The position numbers were made by a program, and so were the translations under genes. Under the pieces are notes generated by a model. The model made no database searches, had not been told where the DNA came from, and saw only the letters and a program-made list of their open reading frames with translations. Of a stretch of 64,000 nt of DNA, positions 21,634 to 58,400 are shown one piece after another; position 1 is the first letter of the stretch; each line of letters starts with the position of its first letter. The stretch comes from Puia sp. (GTDB taxonomy: Bacteria > Bacteroidota > Bacteroidia > Chitinophagales > Chitinophagaceae), in assembly GCA_035946435.1 (NCBI GenBank), contig DASYZH010000353.1, forward strand, positions 2,376 to 66,375, written 5' to 3'.

Positions 21634-21652
21634 ATTGATCTGTTTTGACGGC

Positions 21653-25114: not shown

Positions 25115-25169
25115 AAATTTGTTTTGGTGGGGGAAGAGTGCCACCTCTTCCCCCTGTTTATTATTCTAG

Positions 25170-37804: not shown

Positions 37805-37834
37805 TTTGAATGATTTATTTGCAAAAGAAGTCGA

Positions 37835-39049: not shown

Positions 39050-39053
39050 GGGC

Positions 39054-39848
39054 TTATTTTTTTGGTCGGGGATCATATGGGATCGTGGTTTCCTTGTAAC
39101 CGCCATCGACGTACAGCTCCGTGGCGGTGAAATAGGCCGCCTTGTCACTGGCGAGGAAGGCACAGGTCCAGGCGACATCCTCCACCCTGCCGACACGCCC
39201 CATGGGAATCCAGCCATTGAATTTATCGCGCCCAAAAGATTCAATTTCGTGCCGGTTCATCTCGGTCTCGATAGCGCCGGGCGAGACGGCGAGCACACGA
39301 ATATGATGTTCGGCCAGTTCCAGCGCGAGACACTTGGTCATCATATTCAGACCCGCTTTGGCGGAACAGTAGTGGATCAGCCCTTTGCGGGGGATCTTAT
39401 CATGGATGGAGGAGATGTTCAGGATCACGCCGGTGTTTCGCGGGATCATCCTCCTTGCTGCTTCCTGGGCACAAAAGAAGGCTCCCCGCAAATTTACATT
39501 TAAAACCCGGTCCCATGTTTCGGGATCGAGGTCTACCGCGTGTTCGACCGTTTCGCAGCCGGCATTATTAACCAGGATATCGATTGTGCCATGCGTATTG
39601 TCGAAATCGCGGAACATCGCCAGGACCTCCGGCTTATCTGAGATGTCCGCGGCGAAGGCATTTGCTCTGACCCCATAACGCGCGTTTAGCTCTTTGGCGA
39701 GATCAAGGGCGTTTTGCTGATCCTGGTAATGGTTGATCATCAAATTCGCGCCGCAGGCAGCCATGGCGTGAGCGATGCCCGCTCCGATCCCCCGGCTTGC
39801 TCCGGTGATCAGTACGTTCTTATTTTTGAGATCGATGGTATTTTCCAT
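39054..39848 (-). CDS. SDR oxidoreductase, glucose/aldose 1-dehydrogenase-like
   Basis: [27 protein letters not shown] and PGAIET. The HDKIP..HY pattern resembles Bacillus glucose 1-dehydrogenase. Confidence 0.85.
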
Positions 39849-39865
39849 AAACAAGGTGGTGTCGG

Positions 39866-41077: not shown

Positions 41078-41078
41078 A

Positions 41079-42245
41079 TTATTTGCCGTTTAATGTGCGG
41101 GGAAAGTTAGACAATACCTGATTGCCCTCCCCGGTTACCAAAATATTGTCTTCTATCCGCAGACCGCCCATTCGATCGATGTAGACACCGGGCTCGACTG
41201 TGACAACCATGCCCTCCCTGAATACGCCCTCGGAATACGGCGACAACACTTCTCCGGGATCATGATAGCGGAAGCCAACGTGATGTCCAAGCGCATGGTT
41301 GAACTTATCGCCGAATCCCGCATCGCGGATGATGTTGCGTGCCGCGGCGTCAACCTGCCGCATCGCCATGCCCGGGCGTATCAAATGGATGGCCGCCGTC
41401 TGTGCCCGGCTCACCGTATCGTACAAAGATTGTTGTTCAGGGCTGGGTTCACAAGGCAGCGCCGTGCGGGTAATATCGGCCCAATAGCCGTTTACACAAA
41501 CACCCATTTCAAGGAGAACGAAGCCTTCGCTTCGGATGACCTTCCCGGTACTCCTGTTGAACCTGCCGGCGTCGGCGGTATTGAGGCCGGACTGCACCAT
41601 CGGCCATGCTTTTGCAAAGCCGATTCCGTCTCGGTCAATCGTTTCCTGGACGGCCAGTTCGATGAGGCCGGCGAGCCGGGCCTCGGAATGTCCCTTAACT
41701 ACCTCCGCATAGAATTCCCTAATGGCTATTCCCGCCACCTCGTGCGCCAAATGTAAGCCGGCAACATCGGTTGGACTCTTATATTCGTAGAGCCGGAGCA
41801 AATCGGAAGTGATGTCCCGGAAGCCGCCTGCAAGACTGGCGAACTGTTGGACGAGATCGGCCGGCAGTGGTGGCTGCTCCCCGGACATCCGGCAGGGGGC
41901 GCTGCCGCCGATGGATGGAATATAGGAGCAGGGCAGTCGGGTAAGATCCTTCAGCCGCAATACATCAGCCATAAGTTTATAAAGGCAGGGCCAGGGATCT
42001 TCGCCATTGTGCACGCCCCACGGGAATCGCCGGATCTCGATATGCTGCGGCAGACAATCATCGGGCTCCAACTCCGGCACAAAGAGTACCGGTTCACCAT
42101 CTGCCGTATAGAGCAGTACGGACAGGCCCCAGAGCGGCATATAGCCGAGCATCATCACCAATTCATCGGGACGCCAGAAGACCAGGGCTGAAAGCTGGTG
42201 GCGGCGCAGGAGCCGATCGGTTATCTCTTTTCTGTATCGATCCAT
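41079..42245 (-). CDS. M24 (Xaa-Pro peptidase / pita-bread fold) family enzyme
   Basis: ADITRT, HALGHHVG, VTVEPGVY and GGLRIEDN. The first metal ligand appears to be Glu (LLEMG). Confidence 0.85.
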   Translation of the reverse strand: MDRYRKEITDRLLRRHQLSALVFWRPDELVMMLGYMPLWGLSVLLYTADGEPVLFVPELEPDDCLPQHIEIRRFPWGVHNGEDPWPCLYKLMADVLRLKDLTRLPCSYIPSIGGSAPCRMSGEQPPLPADLVQQFASLAGGFRDITSDLLRLYEYKSPTDVAGLHLAHEVAGIAIREFYAEVVKGHSEARLAGLIELAVQETIDRDGIGFAKAWPMVQSGLNTADAGRFNRSTGKVIRSEGFVLLEMGVCVNGYWADITRTALPCEPSPEQQSLYDTVSRAQTAAIHLIRPGMAMRQVDAAARNIIRDAGFGDKFNHALGHHVGFRYHDPGEVLSPYSEGVFREGMVVTVEPGVYIDRMGGLRIEDNILVTGEGNQVLSNFPRTLNGK

Positions 42246-42248
42246 GAG

Positions 42249-43019
42249 CTACTTTGAATTCTTTTCTGTGAATTTCTTTATGAGATCCTGAGCTACCGGG
42301 TGGTTGAACAGTTCGATCACGGCTTCTCCTTCCTGATCCAGCCGGGTCTCGAAGGGCAGGCCGATCGCCGCCGGAGTGAGCATGGCCTTGATCGCCTTTG
42401 TTGAAATGCGCGGTCTGCGTTGAAGCTTTTGCGCAAGCGCGAGAACGGTGGCCGGAAGGTCTTCGCCGGCCGGAGTATCGTATACGATCCCCCAATGATG
42501 CAGTTGGGCAGCCGGGTACGAACCTCCAAGCAGGAGCATCTCTTTTGTCCGGTTGACTCCTACCTTTTGCAGCAGCCGTTGAGCACCGCCGCCGCCGGGG
42601 ATGAGTCCGAGATGGATCTCCGGCAGGCCCATGGAAGCCGAGACAGCGGCAACGATAAAGTCACAGGCAAGCGCGATCTCGAAACCGCCGCCCAGGGCAT
42701 ATCCGTTGACAGCGGCGATAAAGGGAATTTCCGCCGTTTCGATAAGCGAGTAGAGCTGACGTCCCTGGCGCTGGAACCGGACGAACTGGTCGTTAGTCTG
42801 TGCGGCATATTCTTTGATATCGGCGCCCGCCATAAAAGCGCGACCCTTGCCGGTGATAACGGCCACGTCGATGTGTTTGTCCTGTATGATGGCCTGAAGC
42901 GCGGCGATGATCTCGTCCATCATGCGGCGGTTCATGGCATTGAGCTGGTCCGGTCTGTTAAAGGTCAGGGTTGCGATGCCGGCTGTGACGGTATATTCGA
43001 TGGTCTCAAATGATTGCAT
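42249..43019 (-). CDS. Enoyl-CoA hydratase/isomerase family protein
   Basis: LTFNRPDQLNAM, AFMAGADI, GYALGGGFE and LPEIHLGLIPGGGG. Confidence 0.93.
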   Translation of the reverse strand: MQSFETIEYTVTAGIATLTFNRPDQLNAMNRRMMDEIIAALQAIIQDKHIDVAVITGKGRAFMAGADIKEYAAQTNDQFVRFQRQGRQLYSLIETAEIPFIAAVNGYALGGGFEIALACDFIVAAVSASMGLPEIHLGLIPGGGGAQRLLQKVGVNRTKEMLLLGGSYPAAQLHHWGIVYDTPAGEDLPATVLALAQKLQRRPRISTKAIKAMLTPAAIGLPFETRLDQEGEAVIELFNHPVAQDLIKKFTEKNSK

Positions 43020-44157
43020 GGCAGAGCGTTTGATAAAGGTTGTTCAATTGCTTCAGAACGGACTTTCCATCCCTGTTTTTTAACACTGCATCATGGATGT
43101 GGTCGGCGCCCTGTTCCTGGAAGCGATTGAAGCCAGGCACTCCCGAACGGCGATAGGCGTGTCGCAGGGTATCCAGTGTACCGGCAAAAAAACGGCCGCA
43201 ATCCTCGTTACAGGCCGGGTCGAGCCAGGTGGTGAGATGAGCAGGCTGGCCGCCATTTTCGTAGTAGACGGTTCGCTGGATCCCCGGGTCCAGAACGTAG
43301 CGGATGAAATCAAAACAAGCATCCCTGTGCCTCGACTTGCTGGAAACGGCAATCCCTGCGCCGCCTAAGAGGGTCGATACCTCTCCTGGGCCAAAGCGGG
43401 GTGCATCGATGAAGGTGAGGCGGTGATGGGGAAATTTCTTACGGGAGTAATTCGTATAGCCAAAACTAAAAGGACAGTAGACGATATTTTCTTCAAGCGC
43501 CATTTTATCGAGGAGCTGGATGGGATTGAGGCGTAAGGAATCAGGGTGTAAGAAGGACTGCCACTGTTTCAATAGCTCCAGGGCCCAGCTGCCGGCGGCG
43601 GAGTCGATACCTTCCGCTGTAAAGAAGTTACCGACTGTAAACTGTGCACAGAGCGTCAGGAAAACGCACCAGATATCAGTAGGGCAAAGCGGAATGGCCA
43701 TTTTGTATTGCCGTGGCAACAAACCGGCTGCCTCCCGGAGATGAACGGTCGAAAGCGGCGGATGCCAGCCCAGGGCATCCGTAATATCGCGGCGGCATAC
43801 GGCCACCTGGGCGGCGGCATCGACCGGCAGGGCATAATGTTTGCCACGCCAGCTGTAGCTTTCATAGGACGGACCTACGCTTTGTTTTTGCTGCGAAGCA
43901 AGGAAGCCGGCCCCGAGAAAGTCGTTCAAGGGCAGGAGGTAGCCATTGGCGCCGGCCTCTCCCATATAGGGGTGATCGATGATCAGCAGATCGTAACGGT
44001 CGATGAGTTTCTCGACGGGGAGATCGCCGAATTCTTTGAGGGTACGGACATCCCATTCGAGGCGATGGCCGGTGCGTTTCTCCCAGCAAGCGGCGGCCGC
44101 TCTCAGGGGTTGATAGCCTCTTGGATGGTCCCAGGTAATACCTTTTAAAAGGGTCAT
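43006..44157 (-). CDS. Family 1 solute-binding-protein-like protein lacking a signal peptide
   Basis: The start was moved to ATG 44157 (MTLLKGITWDHPRG). Motifs: DLLIIDHP, ALPVDAAAQV, LGGAGIAVS and GGQPA. There is no hydrophobic N-terminus. Confidence 0.75.
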   Translation of the reverse strand: MTLLKGITWDHPRGYQPLRAAAACWEKRTGHRLEWDVRTLKEFGDLPVEKLIDRYDLLIIDHPYMGEAGANGYLLPLNDFLGAGFLASQQKQSVGPSYESYSWRGKHYALPVDAAAQVAVCRRDITDALGWHPPLSTVHLREAAGLLPRQYKMAIPLCPTDIWCVFLTLCAQFTVGNFFTAEGIDSAAGSWALELLKQWQSFLHPDSLRLNPIQLLDKMALEENIVYCPFSFGYTNYSRKKFPHHRLTFIDAPRFGPGEVSTLLGGAGIAVSSKSRHRDACFDFIRYVLDPGIQRTVYYENGGQPAHLTTWLDPACNEDCGRFFAGTLDTLRHAYRRSGVPGFNRFQEQGADHIHDAVLKNRDGKSVLKQLNNLYQTLCHAII

Positions 44158-44168
44158 ACTATTTTTTG

Positions 44169-45593
44169 TCAGTTTAATTTTGCTTTCCATTCCCGTTCGA
44201 TCTCCTCCAGGGATTGGCCTTTTGTTTCGGGTACCGTGCGTAGAACGAAGATCATGGCGGGGATCATGGTCAATCCATACAGGATAAAAGTGAACCCGAT
44301 GCCCAGGGACTCCCGAAGCAGCGGATACGTTTGAGTTACGAATGTCGAACCGACAAACAGCGATAGCGTGCCGATGGACATGGCGCGGCCCCTGATCCGC
44401 GTCGGAAAGATCTCGGCGATGACGACCCATACACCGGGGCCGATACTGGCCGCGAATACGGCGATATAGAAAATGAAGCATCCCATAAGAAGTCGTTGGT
44501 TTCCGTCAATGAAGAACAGCACCCCGATTGCGAGCAGGGCGATGGAAAGGCCGGCAAATCCACCGACGAGCAGTCTTTTCCTACCCCAGTGGTCGATCTT
44601 CCAAATTGCGACGAATGTAAAGATCATGTTGAAGAACCCGATGACGGCTGCGCTTTCCATCGCGGATCCGGAGGCAAACCCTGCTTTTTCGAAGATAGCC
44701 GGCGCATAGTACATGACGGTGGTGATGCCGGTAAGCTGGCTGAGGAAGGGCAGGATGATCCCGATCGCCAAGGCCGTCCGAATCCCCGGAGCCAGGAGTT
44801 GCCGGAAGCTTCCCTTCTTGTCGTCTGCGAGCGCCGCGACGATCGTGTTCAATTCGTTCCGGGCTTGCTCCGATCCATTGATCCTCAAAAGGATCTCGCC
44901 TGCTTTCGAGCTTCTACCCTCTTTTATCAGCCAGCGCGGGCTTTCGGGTACGCCCAGCAGGAGCAGGAGGAAGAGGATCGCAGGGATCATATTGGAGCCC
45001 AGCATGCCGCGCCAGGGTTCGGCAACGAAGTAGGGCCATAATATTCCGCCACCGGCGGCATGATGGAGGGCATCCAAGGCATGGCTGGAGGCATCCTGGG
45101 CATGGCTGGAGGCGTAATGCAACAACCCGGCATTCGAAAGATAGCTGCAGAGGATACCCAGGGTGATCGCCAATTGATAAAGCGAAACCAGCCTTCCCCG
45201 TAGCCTGGCCGGCGCCAGCTCGGAAATAAACAGCGGGGCCACCATCGCCGCGAATCCTACCCCAATGCCGCCCACTATACGGGCCAGCACCAACCATGCC
45301 GGGTTCAAGGCCAGCATACAGCCCGCCGCGGAAAGGATAAAGAGAAGGGCGGAAGAGACGAGCATTTTTTTTCGCCCATACTTGTCCGCGAGATAGCCGG
45401 CAATCGCGGCGCCGGCGACACAACCGACGAGCGCCGAGCTCATGATCCATCCCTCCATCGCCGGGCTCAGCCGGAATTGGTCTTTGAGGAAGCCTACCGC
45501 GCCCGAGATAACAGCCGTGTCGAAACCGAACAAAAAGCCACCCATGCCCGCTGTCGCACAGATCGCCGTCAAATAGGTATTCCCCTTGATCAT
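44169..45593 (-). CDS. MFS sugar porter (XylE/GalP-like)
   Basis: GGFLFGFDTAVISG, DKYGRK, ISELAPARLRG, PESPRWL and VPETKGQSLEEIE. Confidence 0.95.
   Translation of the reverse strand: MIKGNTYLTAICATAGMGGFLFGFDTAVISGAVGFLKDQFRLSPAMEGWIMSSALVGCVAGAAIAGYLADKYGRKKMLVSSALLFILSAAGCMLALNPAWLVLARIVGGIGVGFAAMVAPLFISELAPARLRGRLVSLYQLAITLGILCSYLSNAGLLHYASSHAQDASSHALDALHHAAGGGILWPYFVAEPWRGMLGSNMIPAILFLLLLLGVPESPRWLIKEGRSSKAGEILLRINGSEQARNELNTIVAALADDKKGSFRQLLAPGIRTALAIGIILPFLSQLTGITTVMYYAPAIFEKAGFASGSAMESAAVIGFFNMIFTFVAIWKIDHWGRKRLLVGGFAGLSIALLAIGVLFFIDGNQRLLMGCFIFYIAVFAASIGPGVWVVIAEIFPTRIRGRAMSIGTLSLFVGSTFVTQTYPLLRESLGIGFTFILYGLTMIPAMIFVLRTVPETKGQSLEEIEREWKAKLN
45070..45111. repeat. In-frame 21-bp tandem duplication in a His-rich loop of the MFS porter
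   Basis: GCATCC(AA/TG)GGCATGGCTGGAG x2, encoding ASSHAQDASSHALD. Confidence 0.85.
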
Positions 45594-48502
45594 TCTTTTT
45601 GTTTGAGGTTATTTTTTAAGGATAGGGATAGGGTTTGGATAGCAGCGGGTCCCATCGGCAAGCGGATAAGACCTGCGCCAGGTTCGCTGGGACCTAATGG
45701 CTGTTCGATAAGGTCGAGTTTTTGCCATTTTTCGACCGGCAGGAAGGTCCGCAGCGTATCTTTTGCCGGACGCCGTTCCATGTTGACGACGCGCAAGACG
45801 AGATGGTCTCCCTTATCGGCTTTTTTGATGGCGGTGATCAGCGTACCCGGTGCGGCCGACCGGAAGAAGCTTTGACGTTCTGGCAGTTCCGGCGCGGCAT
45901 TTGGCCCCCCGACGGTTGGTTCCGGCGCGGCATTCGTCTTCTTCGCGACGCAGTACAGTTCATGATTGTTGCCGATCCCGAAGGCCATCGCCGGTCCGAG
46001 TCCCGGCAGATGGCTGCTTATGGAAAGGCGGAAGACATGCCTGCCGCGTTGCAGATACCAGGGCCCTTCCCCATGGCAGCTTTTCTGGGTCGTAAGCAGA
46101 ACGGCCTGCAGCACCGGATAGCTAACCGATTCGCGGGTAGGGTCGATCCAATCGAAAACAGCCAGTCTCGACGAAAGCGTGAAGCCGAAATTACGAGTGT
46201 CGGCGGTGACGAAGTTCTGCGACTCCCGCGGATGGATCTCTTCGGGCTTTTGGTAATAGGTGCCGCCCCAGGCCCAGCCTCCGGGTCGTACCTGCAATTC
46301 GGTTTCGTGAACCCCGGCAATGCCCATAGGAACATCATAACGGAGATGCGCATCCGCTGTGTTCAAGGGCAGGGCGAAGCTCAGCTGCCGGCTCCTGATG
46401 CCCTTCCAGTCCGGCAGCTCGATCTCGAAGTCGATCTTCTTCAACCTGCGGTAGACGACAATCCGCTGGATCACCGAATCCTGCCCGAGCAGATACCGGC
46501 ATTCAAAGGTGGTGAATACGGGGCCATCGCTGATCCGCGACCATCTGGAGGCGTGATTGCTGAGCTTGTCAAAATCCCGCATATTGGCGGGTGTTATTTC
46601 GGTGAATTCGCCCGCATCGAGGCCATCGTAACCCAGGTCCAGCACGTCACCACCGGCAAACCGGGTGGTATTGAGGAGGTCCTGGCGAAGTTGTTTATCA
46701 TATAGCTCCGTGATCCCGCCGTCGCCGAAGCGGATGCGATAATATTCATTCTCATAGGCATTTTCCGGCGCCGTGGGCTGGGAAGCGGGTGAGGCTGTTC
46801 CCTTTGAAAGGTAGTAGGTAGAGTACCCAATGGCCGGCACCTTTTCCGCGATGATCGCGAGGCCGTGTCCCTGCTCATTGTTTACAACCTGTGAAGGAAT
46901 AGTCCGACCCTGAGCATCCCGGACGAGAAAGTCCGCCGGGTCACCATCGAGGGGGAGGACCGCCGGTGCGTCGCGGTCCCACGAGAGGTCATTAAAGACG
47001 AGGACAGGATGCTCGTGGCGGGTATCTACCCGGGCCGCGATGTGCTTAAGTGCCGGGAAAAGCGTTGCCCTGGCAATGCTATCGCCGGCTTCGAGGTAAC
47101 TCCGGTAAATGCTGTCTGTTATGTCGCCGTGTTTGCCCCCCCATCCATGATCGGGATAGATGCTTTTGTACCATGCGGTGTCGAATGCAGATTGCGGATA
47201 GTCGTTGAAATTTCCCGCGAGCAGCCCGTCGATGGTGTTGAACATCTCCGATGCGGGAAGATGCACGGCGGCGGCGCGTTTGGCTGCAATGGCTTCATAG
47301 TGCGCGGGACCATGGATATAGAGCCAAAGGTTCGGCCTTTCACCTGCGACGGAGTCGAATCGCGCGCCGGGGACGTCGACACTATCCAGGAACTGGTCGG
47401 CCGTCGTATACCGGAGATGTGGGATCGCTAAACCGGATTCGTCCACCAACCTGTTCCACTCGGCCAGTACCTGTTTGTAGAATACCGGTCCCGAGGCGTC
47501 ATTGCTGATCACCACGGCATAGTGCGGTGGAATATCGCGGGAGGCATAATAGGTGTTCCAGCTCCGGAGCACCTCGTGCAGCTTGTGCATAGCCGTGGGA
47601 GCATCAATATTGAAATATTTATAGAACATCACCGCCCAGCCATAATTTCCCGGGCTATAGGTGAGGACATTTGAACCATCCGGGCTATACCATCGGCAGA
47701 ATCCCTCCTTGAAACGGCTGATGAAGAGATGACGGACACCTGCACGGGCTAGGATCTGGGGAAACTGCAGCGTCCGCCCGGGGACATCCACGCTAAAGGC
47801 GGTACGAGCGTCGATCCGGCCGTTAAACCTATCGAGAAGCCATTTCCTTCCCAGGTACAGTTCCCGAACCAGCTGTTCGTCGGATTCAAGGCCTTCGTAT
47901 GGTTGGTTGAAAGTGGCGCCCCACCCGAATTGACCCGATGCGGAAACTTTTATGGCCTCTTTTTCATAGGCAGGATACTCGTGGAGGAGTTCCATGAGGT
48001 TCAGGGTCTGTTCCATTCCGAATCTGAATTCCGGTGATTCCTGCATCATATCGATGGCCGGGACGATGATCTTGTCGATCCGCTCCATGCGGCAGGAATC
48101 CGGCGTATTCATCCAGGCGATATCCTGGTGCGAGGAGGAGATGATATCGATGGTCCCCTTGCCGAAATAATTCCAATCGTCAGGAATATAAGGTGTGAAT
48201 TCCTGCTCTTTGATGATGTGGCCCTGTTTTTTGAAGGTAAGGGTCTGAGTCTTGCCGAAAAGCGGCACCCGGGTATGTAAGGAATCGCCTTCGACGACGA
48301 AGTGCAGCGGCTTACCGGCCAGTTCAATGCCAAGCCCGCCCGTGGGCCCATCGTATACCAGGGTAACCTCTGCCTGTAACTTTCCGTCTATCTTCGCGTA
48401 ACGCATCGGCTGGGGATAGACCAGGGTAACCTCTTGCGCGGAGGTCCGGACAGCAGCGAGCAAAAGAACGATAAGGAATGAAAAAACTTTTACCATATGC
48501 AT
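45590..48502 (-). CDS. GH38-like glycoside hydrolase (paralogue 1, extra N-terminal domain)
   Basis: Signal peptide, SSHQDIAW, SVDVPG, WLYIHGP, YPDHGWGG, VFNDLSW and a GH38-type C-terminal sandwich (IKKAD...VLRV). Confidence 0.8.
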   Translation of the reverse strand: MHMVKVFSFLIVLLLAAVRTSAQEVTLVYPQPMRYAKIDGKLQAEVTLVYDGPTGGLGIELAGKPLHFVVEGDSLHTRVPLFGKTQTLTFKKQGHIIKEQEFTPYIPDDWNYFGKGTIDIISSSHQDIAWMNTPDSCRMERIDKIIVPAIDMMQESPEFRFGMEQTLNLMELLHEYPAYEKEAIKVSASGQFGWGATFNQPYEGLESDEQLVRELYLGRKWLLDRFNGRIDARTAFSVDVPGRTLQFPQILARAGVRHLFISRFKEGFCRWYSPDGSNVLTYSPGNYGWAVMFYKYFNIDAPTAMHKLHEVLRSWNTYYASRDIPPHYAVVISNDASGPVFYKQVLAEWNRLVDESGLAIPHLRYTTADQFLDSVDVPGARFDSVAGERPNLWLYIHGPAHYEAIAAKRAAAVHLPASEMFNTIDGLLAGNFNDYPQSAFDTAWYKSIYPDHGWGGKHGDITDSIYRSYLEAGDSIARATLFPALKHIAARVDTRHEHPVLVFNDLSWDRDAPAVLPLDGDPADFLVRDAQGRTIPSQVVNNEQGHGLAIIAEKVPAIGYSTYYLSKGTASPASQPTAPENAYENEYYRIRFGDGGITELYDKQLRQDLLNTTRFAGGDVLDLGYDGLDAGEFTEITPANMRDFDKLSNHASRWSRISDGPVFTTFECRYLLGQDSVIQRIVVYRRLKKIDFEIELPDWKGIRSRQLSFALPLNTADAHLRYDVPMGIAGVHETELQVRPGGWAWGGTYYQKPEEIHPRESQNFVTADTRNFGFTLSSRLAVFDWIDPTRESVSYPVLQAVLLTTQKSCHGEGPWYLQRGRHVFRLSISSHLPGLGPAMAFGIGNNHELYCVAKKTNAAPEPTVGGPNAAPELPERQSFFRSAAPGTLITAIKKADKGDHLVLRVVNMERRPAKDTLRTFLPVEKWQKLDLIEQPLGPSEPGAGLIRLPMGPAAIQTLSLSLKNNLKQKE
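45887..45934. repeat. 15-bp direct repeat, 33-bp period (NAAPE...NAAPE)
   Basis: TTCCGGCGCGGCATT at 45887 and 45920. Confidence 0.8.
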
Positions 48503-48511
48503 CTGCCTGGC

Positions 48512-51214
48512 TTATTGCCAGAATATTTTTATCGTTTCAATACTATTGTGTCCAAGCCGGATCGTTAATTGACGGCCGTTGGGGTTCAGGGGTTTCGGGT
48601 GATCTTCGACGAGGGAAGTGTAATAGGCTGTCTTAATGGCCCTGGAAAAGGTAAAGGTAACCTGTACATCTTTTCCCTCCGACTCGTAGAAACGCAGCAC
48701 CGTGCCATTGTCATCCTCTGCCTTCTTAATGGTGGTGATCACTACGTTTTGTTTGTCGCAGGAGACGAAGGCGTTGTTCCCGGGAAGTGCGGGACCGATG
48801 GCCCGCTGGGGATTGACGATGGCGATCGGTGGATCGTTGGCCTGACGGCCGAAGGCCGCGCCCGCTTCCCAGCCCTGGGCGTGGGTAGTCAGCGAAAAAT
48901 GATACGTGTGGTCACCCGTCTGGAGATATTCATTGCCTTCGGAATGGCAGCTACGGCGCGAGGCCAGCAGGATGGGCTGTAGCAGGGTGGCCCTGGGTTC
49001 CAAACCAGTAACATCCATAAAATCGAAAGCGGCCGTCGAACTGCTCAGTGTCACGCCAAAACCATCGCCGGACGCACTCATCCAATTCTGCATGCCCCGG
49101 GGGTGGATCTCCCGGGGCAGGGTCATATAGATCTGACCAGCGGGCTGCGGCAGTTCGTCCTTGCCGATCTCCACCTTCCCAAAAGGAACCTCATACGTTA
49201 CACGGGCGTGAGGAGCAGCTACGGGAAGCGCGAGCCGGAATTCCCGGTAAAGGGTGCCGTCCCAGTTCATGAGCGAAACATCGAAATCGATCCGCCGGAT
49301 CGTATTGAAAACCTTGATATCTTCTTCGACAACTGCGTGGCGAATGGCCTGACGGCAATGCCAAAGCGTATATACCGGTCCCTGTTCTTTTATGGTCCAG
49401 CGGTTATCGTGGCTGCCCAGCCGGTCGAAGTCTTCCAGGGTGGGTTGCTGTACAGCATCGAACTCGCCGGCTCCGGTGCCTACGCTCTGCAACGTAAAGA
49501 CTTCGCCCGCCGCCAGGGGACCGTCGGCGACTATTTGTTTTCCGGTGCTTTTGTCGATGAGGCTGGTGATGCCGCCGGGTCCGAAACGCAGTTTATAAAA
49601 GCGATTCTCATACATGCTGTCACTGGCCAGTGGCAAAGCCGAATGCTGTTCTTCGCCTGGTTTCAGGTACCAGGTAGCATACCCCATCGATGGTAGGTCG
49701 GCCGCGACAAAGCTCAGGCTGCGCCGGGCGGGGCCGGTTCCCGGGGATATCCATGCGCACTGAGATAGAACAAGCTGCCCGGCGTCGTCGTATACCTTCA
49801 CCGCCCCGTGACCCCAGGAGGCCGGAAGATCAACGGACACCGCATCGGTCCGGCGACAGTTGGCGCTGTTGAAGACCACTACCGGCATCCCTTTGGCAGG
49901 GGAAGTAGCGATATGCGAAGCGAGTCGCTGTAATGCCGTTGTAAGCAAGTAGCGCCCCGCGGTCTTTGCCTGGGCGTATTTGGCCAAAAAGATATCGTCG
50001 GTGGACTGACCTTCTTTTCCGCCCCAGCCATGGTCGGGGTAGATCTTGGCCTCCCAGGCTTCGTCCAGGGCGGTCGTGGGGTATTCGCAAGCAGGATCGA
50101 CGACCCGGTTGAGCGACCACCATTTTTCCGCATCGGGCAGCAGGACATCCGCTTCGCGGCTTGCGGACACCGCCCAGTGGTGGGAAGGGCCATGGATATA
50201 GATCCAGACGTTGGGGCGTTCCCCGCTGATCGTCGGGATATGAGAAGACGAGGACTTTATGGCGCCGATGAATTGATCAAAGGTGGCATGCTGAAACCGG
50301 GGCAGCCGGACCGATATTGTTTCGCCCGCCGTGTTGCGCACCCGCCTGATGGCATTCCACCGGCTGATAAAAGGGTAAAGATTGTGCACCGGTTTTTGAT
50401 CCCAACCGAACTCATAATTGAGCACGGCGGGGATCGCTTTGGGCAACCCTTGCCGGTCGTTGAAATGGAGCAGCCAGTAAACGGCTTGTTCGGCCATGGT
50501 CCGGATGGCGGCGGTATCGGTTTTTGCGAGGATATTGTAAAAGTCGATATAATGGCCGGGTGAATAGCTGGTCACATAGGAGCCGTCCGGGCTCGTCCAA
50601 TTGTATAATCCCATGCCGAAACGACTGAAGAACATCCCTGTCACACCGGCCTTGGCCATGAGCTGGGGCATCTGCAGGCTTCGACCGGGCACATCGGAAT
50701 TGTAGTAGATGGTGCTGTTATAGCCGAGGTTATCGCGTAACCATTTCTTTCCGAAATAGAACTGCCTGGCGAGGGATTCGCCGCTATACAGGTCTTCATA
50801 GACCTGGGTATAGGAAGCGCCCGCCAGCATCCTGCCGGACCGGAGGTAGGCGGCCACTGTATCCTTCATCTCCGGGTGACGCCGGAGATATTCCATGACG
50901 ATCGAGGATTGTTCGATGTCCATCCGGAAATCCGCAGACCGCCGTAGCCGGGCGAGGAAAGGCGTCAGCCAAAGCGTATCGCGGGCGATCGTGGATTTTT
51001 CAATGGAGTTGATCCATCCGAGGTCCTCGTGGGTAGTCACCGTGAGATAGATACTGGCATCGCCGCCGGAAAGGGCGTCTACTTTTTTCAACAGCGCAAA
51101 GGTGGCATCGTTCACCGTTAGTACACTTTCTTCGGGTGATTGTGCATAAAGGGAAGACCCGCCGGTAAGCGCAATCGTAAATAGCCAAAGGACAACAATC
51201 GATAGTTTTTTCAT
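48512..51214 (-). CDS. GH38-like glycoside hydrolase (paralogue 2)
   Basis: Signal peptide, TTHEDLGW, GESLARQFYFG, NSDVPG, WIYIHGP, YPDHGWGG, VFNS and IKKAED...LRFYE. Confidence 0.82.
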   Translation of the reverse strand: MKKLSIVVLWLFTIALTGGSSLYAQSPEESVLTVNDATFALLKKVDALSGGDASIYLTVTTHEDLGWINSIEKSTIARDTLWLTPFLARLRRSADFRMDIEQSSIVMEYLRRHPEMKDTVAAYLRSGRMLAGASYTQVYEDLYSGESLARQFYFGKKWLRDNLGYNSTIYYNSDVPGRSLQMPQLMAKAGVTGMFFSRFGMGLYNWTSPDGSYVTSYSPGHYIDFYNILAKTDTAAIRTMAEQAVYWLLHFNDRQGLPKAIPAVLNYEFGWDQKPVHNLYPFISRWNAIRRVRNTAGETISVRLPRFQHATFDQFIGAIKSSSSHIPTISGERPNVWIYIHGPSHHWAVSASREADVLLPDAEKWWSLNRVVDPACEYPTTALDEAWEAKIYPDHGWGGKEGQSTDDIFLAKYAQAKTAGRYLLTTALQRLASHIATSPAKGMPVVVFNSANCRRTDAVSVDLPASWGHGAVKVYDDAGQLVLSQCAWISPGTGPARRSLSFVAADLPSMGYATWYLKPGEEQHSALPLASDSMYENRFYKLRFGPGGITSLIDKSTGKQIVADGPLAAGEVFTLQSVGTGAGEFDAVQQPTLEDFDRLGSHDNRWTIKEQGPVYTLWHCRQAIRHAVVEEDIKVFNTIRRIDFDVSLMNWDGTLYREFRLALPVAAPHARVTYEVPFGKVEIGKDELPQPAGQIYMTLPREIHPRGMQNWMSASGDGFGVTLSSSTAAFDFMDVTGLEPRATLLQPILLASRRSCHSEGNEYLQTGDHTYHFSLTTHAQGWEAGAAFGRQANDPPIAIVNPQRAIGPALPGNNAFVSCDKQNVVITTIKKAEDDNGTVLRFYESEGKDVQVTFTFSRAIKTAYYTSLVEDHPKPLNPNGRQLTIRLGHNSIETIKIFWQ

Positions 51215-51235
51215 CCGCCGCTTATTCGTTTATCA

Positions 51236-53926
51236 TTAATTCGTCTTAAAACCGGGATCGAACTCAAAGGTTTCTATGGCATACCTGCCGACATGCACCC
51301 GTTGTCCGCCCCGTTGAGGCGCTATCGGCTGCGGCTGTTGTTCCAGGATATTGGTCTTCTCCAAGCCACGTACACCACGGAACCAATCCAGCCGGATGTC
51401 CGACTCTTTGCCTTCGAGGTCGTAGCACCGGAGAACGATCTTGTCGAGATCATCGTTCTTCTTTATCGTAGAGATCACGATGTTGTCGGCGTCCGTGCCT
51501 GCGAAAGAAAGGCTTTCCGGCAATACGGCCTGTACGGCTGCGGGGCGAGACCGGTTGTCCGGGATATTGTCGACGACCAGCAGTGGTTGAGCGGCTTGTT
51601 TGCCCGCTTTCCAGTTCGGATGCCCCTGGCCGGAGCAAAAGGAGAAGGTAAAATGGTGGTCTCCGCGCTGAAGATACCAGTTGCCCAGCGGGCTTTCGTT
51701 ACAGGTTCGCCGGCTTGCCAGCAGCAGCGGTTGCAACACGGGCTTTGAGTTCTTGCCTGTGGGATCGATCCAGTCGAATACGGCGACATCGGAGCTAATC
51801 GCGACGGAGCCATTGTGATCCCAGGCGCCAAACCAATCCTGTACTTCGCGCGGATGGATCTCCCGGCAGGGTGTGTTATAGACCTGATCCGCTTTCGAGA
51901 ATCCCGCTGCGCGGGGCAATTCCGTTTTCCCAACCTCTACGATGCCCATCGGCACTTCGTAGTCTACATGTCCGCTATCCAGGTCCAGCGGGAAAGCCAT
52001 TCGGAATTCCCGCGAATGTTCGCCGTTGAAACCGATGATATCGGCCTGGAAATCGATGCGCGGGAGCATGGTATAGAATATGACCCGTTGCCGCACTGTA
52101 CAATTCCTCCAGGGGTGAATAGTTTCGATTACCGTCCGTACAGGGCCATTTTCTACGAGACTCCAATCCGTACCATATTGGTTCATGCGCTCAAATCCTT
52201 CCATCGTGGGTTGTTGCACAGCCGTAAATTCGCCCGCGCCGTTGCCAACGGATTGCATCGAAAACACCTCGCCGGCGAGCAATCCGCCGGGGAGTATCCA
52301 CTCACGTGACAAGCGCCGGTCAAATATAGAACTAATGCCGCCTTTCGCAAGTGTGATCTTGTAAAACCTGGTATCGACAACGTTACCGGTTATGTTGATC
52401 CGCAATTTCTGATCGTCTGCCGCCCTGCCGGGGATAAGATAGAAGGTGGAATAGCCTATGGATGGGATATCCCGTGCGACAAACGCGATGGTAAGGGTGG
52501 ATTGGGGTCCTTTGTCGGGAGAAGAGACTACCTGGTAATCCACCGGATCGCCCTTGGCATCGACCAATTGAAACTCGTTGTCATAAATACCTTCCATGTC
52601 GATCGTGGCCTCGACGGGGTCGGTACGCGTCCAGGACAAGGGATTGAACACGACAATGGGTTTGCCAATGGATTTGAATTTGATGGCATGTACAATATCG
52701 TCAAGCTTTGTTTTAAGGATCGAGTCCCCTACCCTTGCGGCCAGTGCATAGCTGTTCGCGTAGATGGCATCCGTGATGTCGCCATGTACGCCGCCCCAAC
52801 CATGATCCGGATAGATCGCGTGCTGCCAGGCCTGGTCGAAGGCGGCTTGTGGGTAATCCTTGAAATTCCCCTGCAGGACCGCGGCAACGGCCGAGAACTT
52901 CTCCGCCGCAGTAAGCACTCTCGAGGAATGTCTTGCTGTCTTGATAGCCTTCTCATGGGCAGGGCCGTGAATATATAGCCAAAGGTTCGGGTATTCGCCC
53001 TGAACGCTGTCGATATGACCGGAAGAGGAGGTCAGCGCGGCAAGCGCTTCGGTACCGGTGGCATAGCCGATGGTCGGGAGCGGCTCATGCCGGTCCTTCA
53101 ACTCGGTATTCCATTGATTGAAAAAGCCATCGTAGTTGGGAGGCACGGAAAAATCCTGGGAGTTGAGCCAGATGAAGTTTGGGGGAAGCTGGTGGTCCTT
53201 ATAGTATCCCGCCCATTCCGCCAGCCGGGCTTTGACAACAGCCGCGCGCTGTTCATTTGTGGCGGCATGGATCAAGGGAATGGATGATTCGTAGTATTGA
53301 CCGGGTGTCCAGCAAGTAACAAAGCTGCCATCCGGGCTGAACCATTTATAGACACCGGGCTGGAACCTGCTGAATTGGAGGAACCGGATCCCTGCTTTCG
53401 ACCAGATCTGGGCCGTCTGGAGGGATCTGCCCGGGACATCTTCCGACCACGCCGTGATGAAGCGGCCGCCGGGGATCATTTTCTCGAGCTTTTTCTTACC
53501 GTAGTATACCTCGCGGATAAGTGCTTCTCCTTCGTAGAGACCCTCATAGGGTTGATTGTAGGTAGCGCCCCATTCCATTCTTCCCTCCCGGGTATATCGG
53601 ATGATATCCGGTAACCGGTCGGGATGACGTTCGACATACTCATAGAAGTTGAGCGCATTCTCTACGGAAAAACAGAACTTATCATTCTGTTTTAGTCTTT
53701 CGAGGGCCGGCGTGATCATGAATTTGTCGCGAAACCGGCGGCAGCTGTCAGGGGTATCCATCCAGGCGATGTCCTGGTGTGAAGAGGGCACCACGAGGAC
53801 CTTGCCACCGCTAAAACTTTCGTAACCGTTGGACACCCGGGCGCCGCCGTCCTGGCCCAGGCTAACCCGGGACACAAGGACGGACAGCAACCAAACCAGG
53901 CCTGCGAATCTTAAACCTTTTCTCAT
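51236..53926 (-). CDS. GH38-like glycoside hydrolase (paralogue 3)
   Basis: Signal peptide, SSHQDIAW, SEDVPG, WLYIHGP, YPDHGWGG and VFNPLSWTR. Confidence 0.82.
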   Translation of the reverse strand: MRKGLRFAGLVWLLSVLVSRVSLGQDGGARVSNGYESFSGGKVLVVPSSHQDIAWMDTPDSCRRFRDKFMITPALERLKQNDKFCFSVENALNFYEYVERHPDRLPDIIRYTREGRMEWGATYNQPYEGLYEGEALIREVYYGKKKLEKMIPGGRFITAWSEDVPGRSLQTAQIWSKAGIRFLQFSRFQPGVYKWFSPDGSFVTCWTPGQYYESSIPLIHAATNEQRAAVVKARLAEWAGYYKDHQLPPNFIWLNSQDFSVPPNYDGFFNQWNTELKDRHEPLPTIGYATGTEALAALTSSSGHIDSVQGEYPNLWLYIHGPAHEKAIKTARHSSRVLTAAEKFSAVAAVLQGNFKDYPQAAFDQAWQHAIYPDHGWGGVHGDITDAIYANSYALAARVGDSILKTKLDDIVHAIKFKSIGKPIVVFNPLSWTRTDPVEATIDMEGIYDNEFQLVDAKGDPVDYQVVSSPDKGPQSTLTIAFVARDIPSIGYSTFYLIPGRAADDQKLRINITGNVVDTRFYKITLAKGGISSIFDRRLSREWILPGGLLAGEVFSMQSVGNGAGEFTAVQQPTMEGFERMNQYGTDWSLVENGPVRTVIETIHPWRNCTVRQRVIFYTMLPRIDFQADIIGFNGEHSREFRMAFPLDLDSGHVDYEVPMGIVEVGKTELPRAAGFSKADQVYNTPCREIHPREVQDWFGAWDHNGSVAISSDVAVFDWIDPTGKNSKPVLQPLLLASRRTCNESPLGNWYLQRGDHHFTFSFCSGQGHPNWKAGKQAAQPLLVVDNIPDNRSRPAAVQAVLPESLSFAGTDADNIVISTIKKNDDLDKIVLRCYDLEGKESDIRLDWFRGVRGLEKTNILEQQPQPIAPQRGGQRVHVGRYAIETFEFDPGFKTN

Positions 53927-55413
53927 TTTAAATTGGGATTTATTTCTACCTCGGCGAGGGGGATCGGGAATTGAAGATTATTGGTCTGAAAGGTCGCCCC
54001 CGAGGGCAGTGTAAAGCCTACAGCATTCACCATGGTATTATGAACGGCGTCGAAGATCTGGTGCGTACGGACGATATCGTACCAATTCTGATTTTCGCCA
54101 CAGAGCTCCCACCATCTTTCTTTCCACACTTCGTTTTGGAAATCCGACTGGCTGAGACCCGACAAGGCGGCGAGCCCGGCCCTGGTGCGAATAGCGTTGA
54201 GAGCAGCGTAAGCGGCAGCATTGGGTGAGCCGTCAGCCGCGTTTTGAGCCTCTGCATAGGTCAGCAGGATATCGGCATAGCGGATGACGGGAAAGTTCTT
54301 GCTCGAAAAGGGTGCGTTTGTGAGCAGGCCTTTATCGAAGAACTTATAGAGGCTCCAGGGGAAATTGTAGGCGGAGCCGCCAACGGTGATGTTGTTGAAA
54401 AAGAAGCCATTTTGTTGGCCACGCAGGTCGGCAGGGTCGTAGGAAGCGACGAAGCTGGTTTGCGGTACGAGCAGACCCTGGTCGTTGTTAACAGCGCTGG
54501 CACTGATAAAAGTTACGCCTTTGGGGCAAAGCTCGAGCGGAAGAATATCGTTGACGATATAGGAGCTGAAATTGATGTCCCATATATGTTCCTGGGTGTT
54601 GTCGAAAGCCGGGTTGTTGAGCTTGTCAAACCAGGTCATATTGGCATCCGTTTGAAAGAGGGAGAAATTCCCGCTGTTGATCACCTCTAAAGCCTTGTTA
54701 CGTGCCAGGGCGTAGTTGGCCGTCTCATTGACAGGATAACCGGCCATGGCAAGATAGACTTTTGCCAGCAGGGCCGATGCGGCGCCGGTCGAAACACGTC
54801 CGGAACCGGCGGGAGTGGCTCGCATGCCGCTCGCTTCGGCCGCCTGCAGGTCGGGAACGATCTCCTGCTCATAGATATCTTTTACCGGGGTCTTTGACAG
54901 CAAGCCGTCGCTGGCGCTCTTTGTAGGGGTTAGTTTCAACGGCACGTCGCCAAAGATGTTGACGAGCGTATAATAAAAGTACGCCCGCAGGAATCTGGCC
55001 TCGCCGATGAGCGCGCTTCGTTGCACGGTATCCATAGAAATACCCGGCACATTGGCGATTACGAGATTGGCGGCTTCGATGCCCTGGTAAGCGGAAGAGA
55101 ACCATTGTTCCAGCAGGGGGCTGGCGGAGTTCTGGCGAAGGTTGTAGACGTTGACCAGGTCGTTACCTTCGGACACCGTATTAAATTGACCGGTGACCAG
55201 TTCCAGCATCGCATAACTGTAGTTACGACCACCGCCCGTATAGGGAACATAAAGATTGGCGTAGATGCCATCGACGGCAGACTGCGCATCCTCGGCGGTC
55301 TGATAATATTGGTTAGTTGTAATTACAGACTTAGGATCTTCTTTCAGCCATTTTTTACAGCCCGGGAAGGCGATGATCGCTATGATGAAGAGAGCTATAT
55401 TCTTCGATTTCAT
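53923..55413 (-). CDS. SusD/RagB family lipoprotein
   Basis: Lipobox AFPGC, GEARFLRAYFYYTLV, GRVSTGAA, IRYADILL and ERWWELCGE. Confidence 0.95.
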   Translation of the reverse strand: MKSKNIALFIIAIIAFPGCKKWLKEDPKSVITTNQYYQTAEDAQSAVDGIYANLYVPYTGGGRNYSYAMLELVTGQFNTVSEGNDLVNVYNLRQNSASPLLEQWFSSAYQGIEAANLVIANVPGISMDTVQRSALIGEARFLRAYFYYTLVNIFGDVPLKLTPTKSASDGLLSKTPVKDIYEQEIVPDLQAAEASGMRATPAGSGRVSTGAASALLAKVYLAMAGYPVNETANYALARNKALEVINSGNFSLFQTDANMTWFDKLNNPAFDNTQEHIWDINFSSYIVNDILPLELCPKGVTFISASAVNNDQGLLVPQTSFVASYDPADLRGQQNGFFFNNITVGGSAYNFPWSLYKFFDKGLLTNAPFSSKNFPVIRYADILLTYAEAQNAADGSPNAAAYAALNAIRTRAGLAALSGLSQSDFQNEVWKERWWELCGENQNWYDIVRTHQIFDAVHNTMVNAVGFTLPSGATFQTNNLQFPIPLAEVEINPNLK

Positions 55414-55424
55414 TTTTTCTTTTT

Positions 55425-58400
55425 TTAGAGATTTGCGGTGATGCCGACGGTGAAGGTCCTGGGACGGGGTGAGCCATAGAATTCGACACCCTGTGAAAAG
55501 GTCGAACCGCTGAAGGTGCTGACTTCAGGATCGAAACCGCGATACTTCGAGATCAGGAAGAAGTTATTTACGTTGCCGTATACCCGCAGGCCGGACAAGC
55601 CCAGCCTTTTGGATTGCTTTTCCGGAAAGGCATACGAACAGTTGATGCTTTTCCCTCTTATGAAGGACCCATCTTCGACCCAACGGCTATCCATGAAGAA
55701 GGGCAGGTCGGTACCCCAGGGATCGACATTCGCAAAGCGAAGGGCCGGGACCATCGTGTTTTGATTTTGCGGGGTCCAGGCATCCCTGAGGATGGTGGAA
55801 TAGCTGTTGGCATAATATTGCCGGTCTTCCAGTGTCAGGGTCGAGACGTTCATGACCTTGTTCCCGTGCCGGATCATCACGTCTGCGCTTAAGGTCCAGT
55901 TGTGATAGCGGACGGTGGTCGTCAGATCCAGCTCATATTTGGGAAACATATTGCCCAGCACCATGGCGTCGCTGTTGTCGAAAACGTGGTCGCCATTGAC
56001 ATCCAGACGTTTGATATCACCCGGTTTCTTGCCATACAATGCAGCTTCGGCAGCTTCTTTTGTACCCCAGACCCCGATACGTTTGAAGCCCCAGAAATTC
56101 CCGAGTGGTTTACCCACCTGCAGGATATTGGTCTGGCCGAGGAAGTTTGGTCCGGGATAGATATCCGCGTTGGTGGTACCCAGGGCCAGTATTTTGCTTG
56201 CATTGGTCGAGAATTGGGCGCCGAGGCTCCAGGTGAGATTTGCTGTACGCAACACGTCTCCATTGACCGCCAATTCAAAACCCTGATTCTGGAGACTGCC
56301 GATATTGGTGAATACGGACGAGTAGCCGGTGACCGTGGTCACGGGTACGTTGAGGAGCAGATTGGTAGTTTTCTTCTTATAGTAATCGGCCGTCGCACTC
56401 AGGCGATCATCGAGCACTTTAATATCCAGGCCGAGATCGGCCTCCGCCGTTTGTTCCCATTTGAGGTTGGGATTGGGGATGCTCACCGGCGCGGTGCCGC
56501 GAACGATCTGGTTGTCCATTGCAATCGTGTAGACACCAACATTACCCAGAGACGAGTAGGGGGGAATTTCCGAATTACCGGTCAATCCGTAGCTGCCCCG
56601 GAATTTTAAGAAAGAAATAAAGCCATTGTGGGCGAGGAAATTCTCTTTGGAAGCGATCCAGCCCAAGGCGCCCGATGGAAAGAAGGCGAACTTGTTGGCA
56701 TCCCCGAATTTGGATGATCCATCATACCTGCCGGTGAACGTCAGCAGGTATTTTTCGAGATAACTGTAGTTAAGCCTGCCGTAATAGGAGTTGAGTTTGT
56801 AATTACTATAGCTGGACAGGGGGGTTCCGGGCACGGAGCCGGCGCTGAGGTTGTTGAATTGATAAAAATCGGTTGAGAATTCCGTGGCGCTGGCCGTAAC
56901 ACCCTCGGTGGTGGAAGACATCCAACTGCTGCCGAGAACCGCGTTCAGGTGATCGTTACCGGTAAAGGTCCGATCATAAGTTAAATAGTTCTCGACCTGC
57001 CAGTAATTGGTCCGGGTGTCGCCTACCGAGGCCTGGCCGTTGGTAGATGCCCCCATGCTTTCCAATTCCTTACTCAGGTAAAAATTGTTCTTTTGAGAAA
57101 ATATCTGCGATGCATAGGTCGACTTGAGGGTCAGTCCTTTCGCAAGCCGGATATTGGCATAGAGATTCAGCAGCACCTGATCTGTGAGATAGATATTGGT
57201 GAAGTTCTGCAAAATACGCACCGGGTTCTCCGCCGGATATACACCCGATTTCGTGTGGTTGCCCGAAGCATCGAAATTGTATCCGAACTGATCCAGGCGG
57301 CTCCAGGTGCCGTCCGGGTATTTTACCGGGAAGATCGGCAGCATTTCGATCATCATACGGGTGGGCGTCATGCCGCCGACCCCGTAGTCATCGAGTTGAT
57401 TGGTGTTGATCTGGTTGTAGGCGATGTCCCCGCCCGTAGTCAGCCAGGGACGAAGCGTTTGCTCGGTGTTGTAGCGAACACTGAGCTTCTTATAGTAAGT
57501 ATTGAGCAGGATACCCTGATCATCCTGGTAACCGGTATAGAGGCCCGATTTCGATTTTGTCGTGCCTGAGGTAAGTGAAACAAAATGACGATGAGAGATC
57601 CCGGTTTGGGTGGCTTCCTTCTGCCAGTCCGTATTGTAGATCGGCTGTTCGTTGGAATTGAACAAGAGCGGGTAATCGGCATGGAGATCGGGCAGCGGCC
57701 CGCGATCCGGGTTGTAAGCCCAGGCACGGGTAAACCAATCCATCCAGCCTTTGGAATCCAGCATGCTCATCCTCCGGGCGAGGACATTGGCGCTGACACT
57801 ACCGTTATAAGCTATGCTGAAGTCGCCGTTGCGGGCTCTTTTGGTAGTGACGATGATGACCCCGTTCGCGCCCCTGGCTCCATAGATCGCGGTCGAAGAC
57901 GCGTCTTTGAGTACATCCACGGCTTCGATATCGGAGGGATTGATCGACTGGAAATCGGCGCCTACGATCCCGTCGATGACGAATAGCGGCGAGTTGGAAG
58001 CCGAGATGGAGTTGAAGCCGCGGAGATTGACGCTGATCCCGCCGCCGGGACGGCCGGAGTTGTTGTAGATACTGAGGCCGGGCACTTTACCAGAGAGCGC
58101 CTCCAGCGGGTTGGAAGTGATCCTATCCGCCATATCGGAGGCTTTTACCGAAGCAACGGAGCCGGTTACATCCGCTTTTTTCTGTGTACCGTAACCGATA
58201 ACGACTACATCATTCAGGACGCTTGTCCTTGGCACCAGTGCGACCTGCACCGCGCCATTGCCATGGACCAGGACCGTTTGCTGCTGGTATCCCGTAATGC
58301 TGAAGATAAGGGCGGCGCCATCGGTCGCCTCGATGGAGAATTGGCCACGTTCGTTTGTTGCGGTGCCCCTTTGGGAGCCCTTGATCGTTACGTTTACACC

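Follow-up and report, generated by a model that had tools for sequence, protein, structure and literature searches.

Three Adjacent GH38 Paralogs of a Puia sp. Operon Point to a Widespread Subfamily with a Rebuilt Metal and -1 Sugar Site

Introduction

Glycoside hydrolase family 38 (GH38) is a textbook family, home to Golgi mannosidase II and lysosomal mannosidase and a target of swainsonine, and its accepted signature includes a Phe stacked on the mannose in subsite -1 together with a His-Asp dyad as the last element of the zinc site. Here we analyze a stretch of 64,000 nucleotides from Puia sp. (GenBank assembly GCA_035946435.1, contig DASYZH010000353.1, positions 2,376 to 66,375 of the forward strand), referred to throughout as the window, whose minus strand carries three adjacent GH38 genes. 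Their products, P0003 (51236..53926, 896 residues), P0002 (48512..51214, 900 residues) and P0001 (45590..48502, 970 residues, including an N-terminal extension of ∼95), belong, judging from their sequences, to a real, widespread and uncharacterized branch of GH38 in which the -1 and metal pocket is rebuilt, and they form a conserved trio.

Results and Discussion

The Locus and Its Three GH38 Genes

The three genes belong to a minus-strand operon for sugar uptake in this soil member of the Bacteroidota, comprising 13 genes that run from 58550 to 36734 of the window with all gaps at most 30 nt or short overlaps. The first gene encodes a SusC-like TonB-dependent transporter (55425..58550; Pfam CarbopepD_reg_2, Plug and TonB_dep_Rec_b-barrel), followed by a SusD-like glycan-binding lipoprotein (53923..55413; Pfam SusD-like_3 and SusD_RagB) whose gene overlaps that of P0003 by 4 nt. 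At the other end of the trio the P0001 gene shares a 4-nt overlap with that of a XylE-like sugar porter of the major facilitator superfamily (MFS; 44169..45593; Pfam Sugar_tr, 9e-111), which also scores above the NCBIfam cut-off for a sugar-porter subfamily. From SusC through SusD and the three GH38 genes to this porter the intergenic gaps are at most 21 nt or 4-nt overlaps. A divergent gene on the plus strand (58760..59638) encodes an AraC-type regulator with cupin and HTH_18 domains according to Pfam, and such a divergent AraC gene is also present in 13 related loci.

A preliminary description of this DNA had listed four motifs common to the three proteins, and translations together with a motif scan confirm that H(Q/E)D, DVPG, W(L/I)YIHGP and YPDHGWGG are indeed found in all of them. 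In P0003 they occupy residues 48-55 (as SSHQDIAW), 163-166, 316-322 (WLYIHGP) and 372-379, encoded at 53762..53785, 53429..53440, 52961..52981 and 52790..52813; in P0002 residues 60-67 (TTHEDLGW), 174-177, 337-343 (WIYIHGP) and 392-399, at 51014-51037, 50684-50695, 50186-50206 and 50018-50041; and in P0001 residues 123-130 (SSHQDIAW), 239-242, 393-399 (WLYIHGP) and 449-456, at 48113-48136, 47777-47788, 47306-47326 and 47135-47158, all on the minus strand. Because the paralogs are 32-37% identical in pairwise comparisons and 123 relatives from 80 loci show no variation at these residues, the sharing of motifs reflects homology rather than chance. P0001 contains a second DVPG (residues 376-379, in SVDVPGARF; window 47366-47377) just upstream of WLYIHGP that looks like a chance occurrence, as relatives do not keep it.

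All three translations begin with a cleavable-looking signal peptide and have no lipobox Cys. Each protein matches three Pfam GH38 models above their gathering scores, GH38N with 65-96 bits (cut-off 25), GH38C2 with 37-51 bits (22) and GH38C with 26-34 bits (25), and none of them matches Alpha-mann_mid at E≤0.01. The sole NCBIfam match is a partial one to the MngB model NF007331, with 48-104 bits against a cut-off of 1138.

Fold and Catalytic Residues

An AlphaFold2 model of P0003 (pLDDT 84, pTM 0.88) was compared with the PDB using Foldseek, and the best-ranked 40 matches are all GH38 enzymes. The match to SpGH38 (2WYH) extends over ∼900 residues with a TM score of 0.75 and an E value of 3e-43, and others are to the E. 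faecalis enzyme (3LVT/5KBP), Ams1, Bl_Man38A-C, jack bean mannosidase and Golgi mannosidase II; the identity of P0003 to the solved structures that were matched is 12-16%. The predicted structure has the full GH38 fold, with an N-terminal α/β catalytic domain, a three-helix bundle and C-terminal β domains. Over their whole length SpGH38 (2WYH/2WYI) and E. faecalis GH38 show this same five-domain fold (TM 0.73-0.78), although they are 15-16% identical to the window proteins, begin in the alignment at the catalytic domain with no leader, unlike the window proteins with their signal peptides, and are not encoded in a SusC/SusD operon.

The zinc ion of SpGH38 is held by H13, D15, D125 and H351; D125 is also the nucleophile and D232 the acid/base, W18 and F127 stack on the -1 sugar, and R149 is the partner of the nucleophile and contacts O6 (PMC2815779). 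In a HMMER profile alignment the zinc ligands H13 and D15 correspond to H50 and D52 of P0003, the stacking residues W18 and F127 to W55 and P165, the nucleophile and zinc ligand D125 to D163, R149 to R187 and the acid/base D232 to D258. The HxD ligands, the stacking Trp, the nucleophile Asp, its partner Arg and, in the aligned position, a candidate acid/base Asp are shared with both SpGH38 and E. faecalis GH38, from which the window proteins differ by having Pro in place of F127 and P-D-H-G-W-G-G where these enzymes have an N-H-P-H-D loop. It had been proposed that DVPG replaces the DxFG of typical GH38 enzymes, and both HMMER and hhalign place it, ungapped, on the nucleophile motif D-T/S-F-G, with the Asp kept and the Phe changed to Pro. 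The general acid/base Asp that is D232 in SpGH38 is D341 in dGMII.

These assignments hold across a much larger set of sequences. The His and Asp of HxD are invariant in 123/123 clade sequences and the stacking Trp is present in 119/123; the equivalents of H50, D52, W55, D163 and R187 vary little or not at all across the three clades (1, 2 and 3) to which P0001, P0002 and P0003, respectively, belong. In the acid/base column clades 1 and 3 have Asp, while clade 2 has E or D (in NYEFGWDQKP), depending on a 4-residue insertion. Altogether 103 positions with at least 90% conservation have the same residue in clades 1-3, and every catalytic candidate is among them.

E. coli MngB provides a further reference point. 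An hhalign comparison (probability 99.6%, 751 columns) gives the same placement of MngB DSFG on DVPG, and it aligns GE...H at the start of the MngB helical bundle with GE..WLYIH of the window proteins. WLYIHGP opens the three-helix bundle of P0003, with H320 and H324 both invariant in the clade, and H320 falls on the His of V-H-R in MngB. The differences are substantial, as MngB is 19% identical, has DSFG and NHAHDS motifs and has no signal peptide in its translation. The view that typical bacterial GH38 enzymes carry DxFG and an HD...G motif agrees with the sequences of SpGH38, E. faecalis GH38, Ams1 and MngB; DVPG and DHGWGG are found in none of the characterized enzymes encountered here and in none of the PDB matches, all of which have DTFG or DSFG together with HD.

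The PDHGWGG Loop and the Metal Site

In the P0003 model PDHGWGG forms a coil between the bundle helices 360-370 and 379-412, the loop that supplies the fourth zinc ligand in SpGH38 from its canonical N-H-x-H-D. In three alignments, to SpGH38 with HMMER, to MngB with hhalign and with MAFFT L-INS-i, D374-H375 falls on the N-H of this motif, with H375 two residues before the zinc His. HMMER against Ams1 disagrees, putting H375 on the zinc His itself at the cost of two one-residue gaps, and an ungapped alignment anchored on hydrophobic-x-G reproduces the reversal of the HD order that had been suggested earlier. Measured from the anchors W367 and D386, there is one residue more upstream of the His than in MngB. 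Spacing and alignments taken together therefore support the proposal that an invariant DHGWGG replaces the HD motif in the same loop; the reversed order that went with it is not established, since the register differs between alignments.

The loop His is kept in nearly all of 121 full-length relatives, the exception being five DVGWGG sequences, and the residue before it is Asp in 90, Cys in 16, Glu in 8 and Gly in one, with Asn in the MngB control. Such D/E/C variation in front of a near-constant His suits a metal ligand better than a hydrogen-bond partner of the sugar, from which we infer a modified metal site that H375, possibly with D374, would complete. The five exceptions (representatives P0186, P0190, P0201, P0207 and P0224) read YPDVGWGG, with His changed to Val and both the Asp and WLYIHGP kept. 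Remote relatives have CHG[WY] or [DE]HNWGG in the loop.

A Deep Clade with Three Branches

P0003 has more than 1500 relatives among clusters at 90% identity; of the representatives at 50% identity, 407 match at E≤1e-30, a number that rises to 2016 when E≤1e-10 is allowed. Relatives containing the exact words IYPDHGWG or PREVQDWF come from at least 529 species genomes, mostly of Bacteroidota and also of Latescibacterota, Aminicenantes, KSB1, Eubacteriales, Actinomycetota and Chthonomonadaceae. The closest named relatives, 68-70% identical, are from Chitinophagaceae (Flavitalea sp. BT771, Puia and 'Sphingobacteriales bacterium 50-39'). Many clade members (P0126-P0159, for example) have 1130-1200 residues, with an N-terminal extension of 280-350 residues that the window proteins do not have.

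A tree was computed from 142 GH38-like open reading frames (ORFs) of 80 loci, with motifs counted from alignment columns. The DHGWGG sequences form a single clade of 126 members with support of 1.0, and this clade divides into three groups that contain one window protein each (support 1.0, 0.996-1.0 and 0.98). Separation in the tree, the low identity to solved GH38 enzymes quoted above and the lack of an Alpha-mann_mid match all bear out the suggestion of a distinct, deep GH38 subfamily. Outside the 126-member clade there is a sister class of GH38-like proteins with D-[VI]-P-G and E-H-T-W-[GC] that shares the Pro after the nucleophile and the loop of an acid followed by His-x-aromatic, and differs in having neither R187, H320 and H324 nor the GG of DHGWGG. 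Since this class also has the Pro, which is found in 106/121 full-length sequences, Pro after the nucleophile is the signature of a still larger group. Sister-class genes are found in the same loci as relatives of the trio and in the Puia genome itself, and we found no characterized member.

All three orthologous groups occur together in 15/80 loci, in the orders 3-2-1, 1-3-2 and 2-3-1. Clade 3, that of P0003, is the core and most widespread group and is found without clade 1 or 2 in 59/83 loci that hold a clade member. The three supported clades, the 15 shared loci and the 103 common positions indicate that the triplication is ancient and that all three proteins look catalytically competent. 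The preliminary description had read the triplication as a sign of linkage-specific, aglycone-specific or heteromeric roles, and part of this proposal is supported. An old and conserved triplication fits divided specificities. Only four positions show clade-specific fixed differences at the 90% level, too few to predict the linkage preference of each paralog.

It might be argued instead that one or more of the paralogs are non-catalytic binding proteins, or that the three are subunits of an obligate heteromer, as three adjacent paralogs recur as a set in 15 loci and the metal-site loop is non-canonical. We regard this as very improbable. The candidate catalytic residues are conserved within each clade separately, and on these grounds we reject a pseudoenzyme; clade 3 mostly occurs alone, showing no dependence on partners, so that an obligate heteromer is unlikely and was likewise rejected.

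Gene Neighborhoods

Clustering of all neighbors in the 80 related loci shows that the commonest are a URO-D-like gene (27/80 loci), the MFS sugar porter (23/80), SusC (21/80) and an AGE-family gene (16/80). The AGE family includes mannose isomerases, and its Pfam family is named for N-acetylglucosamine 2-epimerase. A module of M24, short-chain dehydrogenase/reductase (SDR), RraA and UxuA-like genes is present in 11/80 loci. There is zero overlap between the loci with the URO-D-like gene and those with this module, even though both have the same GH38 clade and the same cluster of MFS porters. Loci where URO-D-like and AGE-like genes partner this GH38 and porter (including L014, L015, L017, L018, L033-L035, L038, L041, L050 and L051) are mostly from Bacteroidales-type and candidate-phylum genomes. 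The two sets of genes look like alternative routes for one imported product.

The window has the second of these modules. Downstream of the MFS porter, tightly packed minus-strand genes (36734..44157; Pfam and NCBIfam) encode in order a protein with the fold of a solute-binding protein (SBP) and no leader, an enoyl-CoA hydratase, an M24-fold enzyme, a family III CoA-transferase, an SDR, a cupin-RraA fusion and a UxuA-like protein. The SDR (39054-39854) is of the sugar-1-dehydrogenase type and scores above the glucose-1-dehydrogenase subfamily cut-off; the cupin-RraA fusion (37835-39049) is followed by the UxuA-like dehydratase (36734-37804), the last gene of the operon, which falls below the mannonate dehydratase cut-off. 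Pfam and NCBIfam annotation of the downstream module reveals no kinase gene.

Synteny covers the entire operon in Flavitalea, Puia and further Chitinophagaceae, and all or part of the downstream module in Flavitalea, Puia, Draconibacterium, Mucilaginibacter, Pedobacter and Chitinophaga eiseniae, with parts of it conserved across three orders of Bacteroidota. In Draconibacterium SusC, SusD, a GH76-like gene, three GH38 genes and the MFS porter are accompanied by cupin, RraA, SDR, lactonase, SBP, enoyl-CoA hydratase and CoA-transferase genes; Mucilaginibacter, Pedobacter and C. eiseniae have a single clade-3 GH38 with the porter, M24, SDR, cupin-RraA and UxuA-like genes. A GH76-like protein is encoded in four related loci. 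We found no literature on URO-D-like genes in polysaccharide utilization loci (PULs) with mannosidases or on an oxidative mannose pathway, and nothing relevant on GH38 clades.

Other GH38-like genes and a second PUL were noted in the same genome. Two sister-class paralogs, on contigs C34 (157-3066; SDVPG and SEHTWG) and C406 (6838-9534; TDVPC and DEHTFG), have no Arg aligned to SpGH38 R149. A further GH38-like ORF on contig C42 (1648-4560), an open frame of 971 residues, has a canonical Q-H-H-D middle motif and matches Alpha-mann_mid above its cut-off; it has DGYHGG at the expected HxD, SSEEPCF at the expected nucleophile motif and a long Ala/Thr/Ser/Gln repeat linker. The second PUL is separate, on the minus strand of the window at 9761-25144, and comprises an ORF (21653-25144) assigned to the SusC position by its location only, a SusD (20053-21672), a GH89 α-N-acetylglucosaminidase (17864-20056), a GH35-GH92-LamG fusion of 1915 residues (12205-17952) and a GH95 enzyme (9761-12208). 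Between the two PULs lies a gene for an FG-GAP/ASPIC-UnbV repeat protein of 1109 residues (26897-30226).

Proposed Function and Alternatives

We consider it reasonably probable that the three enzymes are periplasmic retaining exo-α-mannosidases of an uncharacterized GH38 subfamily. A periplasmic location is predicted from the signal peptides and the absence of a lipobox Cys, and for members of GH38 a retaining, divalent-metal-dependent and swainsonine-inhibited α-mannosidase activity would be expected. The proteins would act as exo-acting, metal-dependent glycosidases using the GH38 double-displacement mechanism in a rebuilt -1 pocket, with α-mannosides as the likeliest substrates, for instance mannan of yeast or other fungi or glycans of the high-mannose type, imported as oligosaccharides through the SusC/SusD pair, and each old orthologous group would probably handle a different linkage or aglycone. 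The monosaccharide set free would be taken up by the co-transcribed XylE-like porter and broken down without a kinase, by the SDR as sugar-1-dehydrogenase, the UxuA-like protein as aldonate dehydratase and the RraA-like protein as aldolase, a route that fits the conversion of mannose to mannonate, 2-keto-3-deoxygluconate and finally pyruvate plus glyceraldehyde.

Several neighbors indicate a mannose-type context, namely the GH76-like genes in four loci, which fit α-mannan, the AGE-family genes in 16, the UxuA-like gene and the glucose-1-dehydrogenase-type SDR. Precedents for such a function are the Bacteroides enzymes BT3774, Bs01537 and Bs04085, periplasmic broad-specificity GH38 α-mannosidases that are encoded in Bacteroidota PULs and strip side chains from α-mannan (PMC4978465; bioRxiv 10.1101/2022.07.15.500217). 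The PULs of these enzymes differ in also having GH92, GH76 and GH125, none of which is found in the window operon, and at least one GH38 of B. thetaiotaomicron has a recognizable Alpha-mann_mid domain, which the window trio does not.

A number of observations weigh against this assignment. Where every solved GH38 has a Phe stacked on the -1 mannose, the clade has an invariant Pro, and in the three alignments that agree on the loop the positions of the zinc His and the Asp are taken by W377 and G378, so that the canonical dyad is absent in that register; the model of the motif loop is itself of low confidence (pLDDT ∼62). We found no characterized member of the clade, and the three Bacteroides enzymes are known here by description only. 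Two dedicated modules that never co-occur accompany the clade, which the breakdown of plain mannose would not require, and in place of mannan enzymes many distant related loci have rhamnosidases, fucosidases, GH28, GH95 and sulfatases. The modules and these non-mannan enzymes lead us to keep a modified manno-sugar as a live alternative.

According to this alternative, which we think possible but clearly improbable, the substrate is a modified or unusual manno-configured sugar, O-methylated mannose for example, with the change of Phe to Pro and the DHGWGG loop making room for the substituent. A corrinoid/MtaA-like URO-D enzyme and an AGE isomerase would process the product in URO-D genomes, and in genomes of the window type oxidation to the aldonate would be followed by elimination of a 3-substituent by the UxuA-like enzyme. 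The proposal accounts for two modules that serve the same GH38 clade and porter cluster and are never seen together (27 and 11 of the 80 loci), and the residues that depart from canonical GH38 are those surrounding O2 and O3 of the -1 sugar; that no paper we found links URO-D-like genes to mannosidase PULs is in keeping with it as well. However, the support comes solely from gene context, with no methylated substrate, corrinoid protein or demethylase identified in the window, the AGE-family and UxuA-like genes fit plain mannose too, and the Arg aligned with the O6-contacting Arg of SpGH38 and three metal ligands are unchanged. In its most specific version, rather a long shot, the DVPG/DHGWGG clade would constitute a new GH38 specificity, that of exo-glycosidases for a substituted manno-sugar such as 3-O-methyl-mannose, with a rebuilt metal and -1 site whose ligands would be H, D, D and a D/E/C-H dyad.

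Alternatively, the substrates might be small mannosyl-organic-acid solutes of the mannosylglycerate type, the acid aglycone being processed by the CoA-transferase, the enoyl-CoA hydratase and the SBP-fold protein, although we regard this as highly unlikely. The only NCBIfam match of the trio is, after all, to a mannosylglycerate hydrolase, partial and far under its cut-off, and the three genes in question are co-transcribed with the GH38 genes and have syntenic counterparts in Chitinophagaceae, Draconibacterium and one Prolixibacteraceae locus. On the other hand, they are missing from the Mucilaginibacter, Pedobacter and C. eiseniae loci that keep GH38, porter, M24, SDR, RraA and UxuA-like genes, and a SusC/SusD pair with three secreted enzymes points to oligosaccharides. 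MngB, moreover, is cytoplasmic and acts on a solute that is phosphorylated by the phosphotransferase system.

We therefore retain the assignment as exo-α-mannosidases as our preferred reading. The core catalytic residues and several mannose-type neighbors argue that the substrate is a mannoside, though given the downstream modules it may be a modified one, and the earlier suggestion that the enzymes may not be simple α-mannosidases keeps some probability. The mannoside specificity and a division of labor among the three paralogs are predictions, whereas the fold, the conserved residues, the clades and the synteny are observed.

Concluding Remarks

A clade that has neither the Phe nor the His-Asp dyad of the GH38 signature, yet keeps the other features of the family, has hundreds of representatives at 50% identity and relatives in 529 or more species genomes. 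This implies either more plasticity in the GH38 metal and sugar site than is apparent from solved structures or a new specificity of the clade, which is tightly tied to two alternative, unstudied catabolic modules. Should the substrate prove to be a substituted manno-sugar, there would be two oxygen-independent ways to handle the substituent, in some genomes by a URO-D/MtaA-like methyltransferase with an AGE isomerase and in those of the window type by oxidation to the aldonate, β-elimination of the substituent by the UxuA-like 'dehydratase' and cleavage by the RraA-like aldolase. Establishing the function of the clade would annotate thousands of genes now labeled 'alpha-mannosidase' or 'glycosyl hydrolase-related protein', and could point to the substrate of a whole type of PUL, one often present in the Bacteroidota genomes from soil and sediment that we found.

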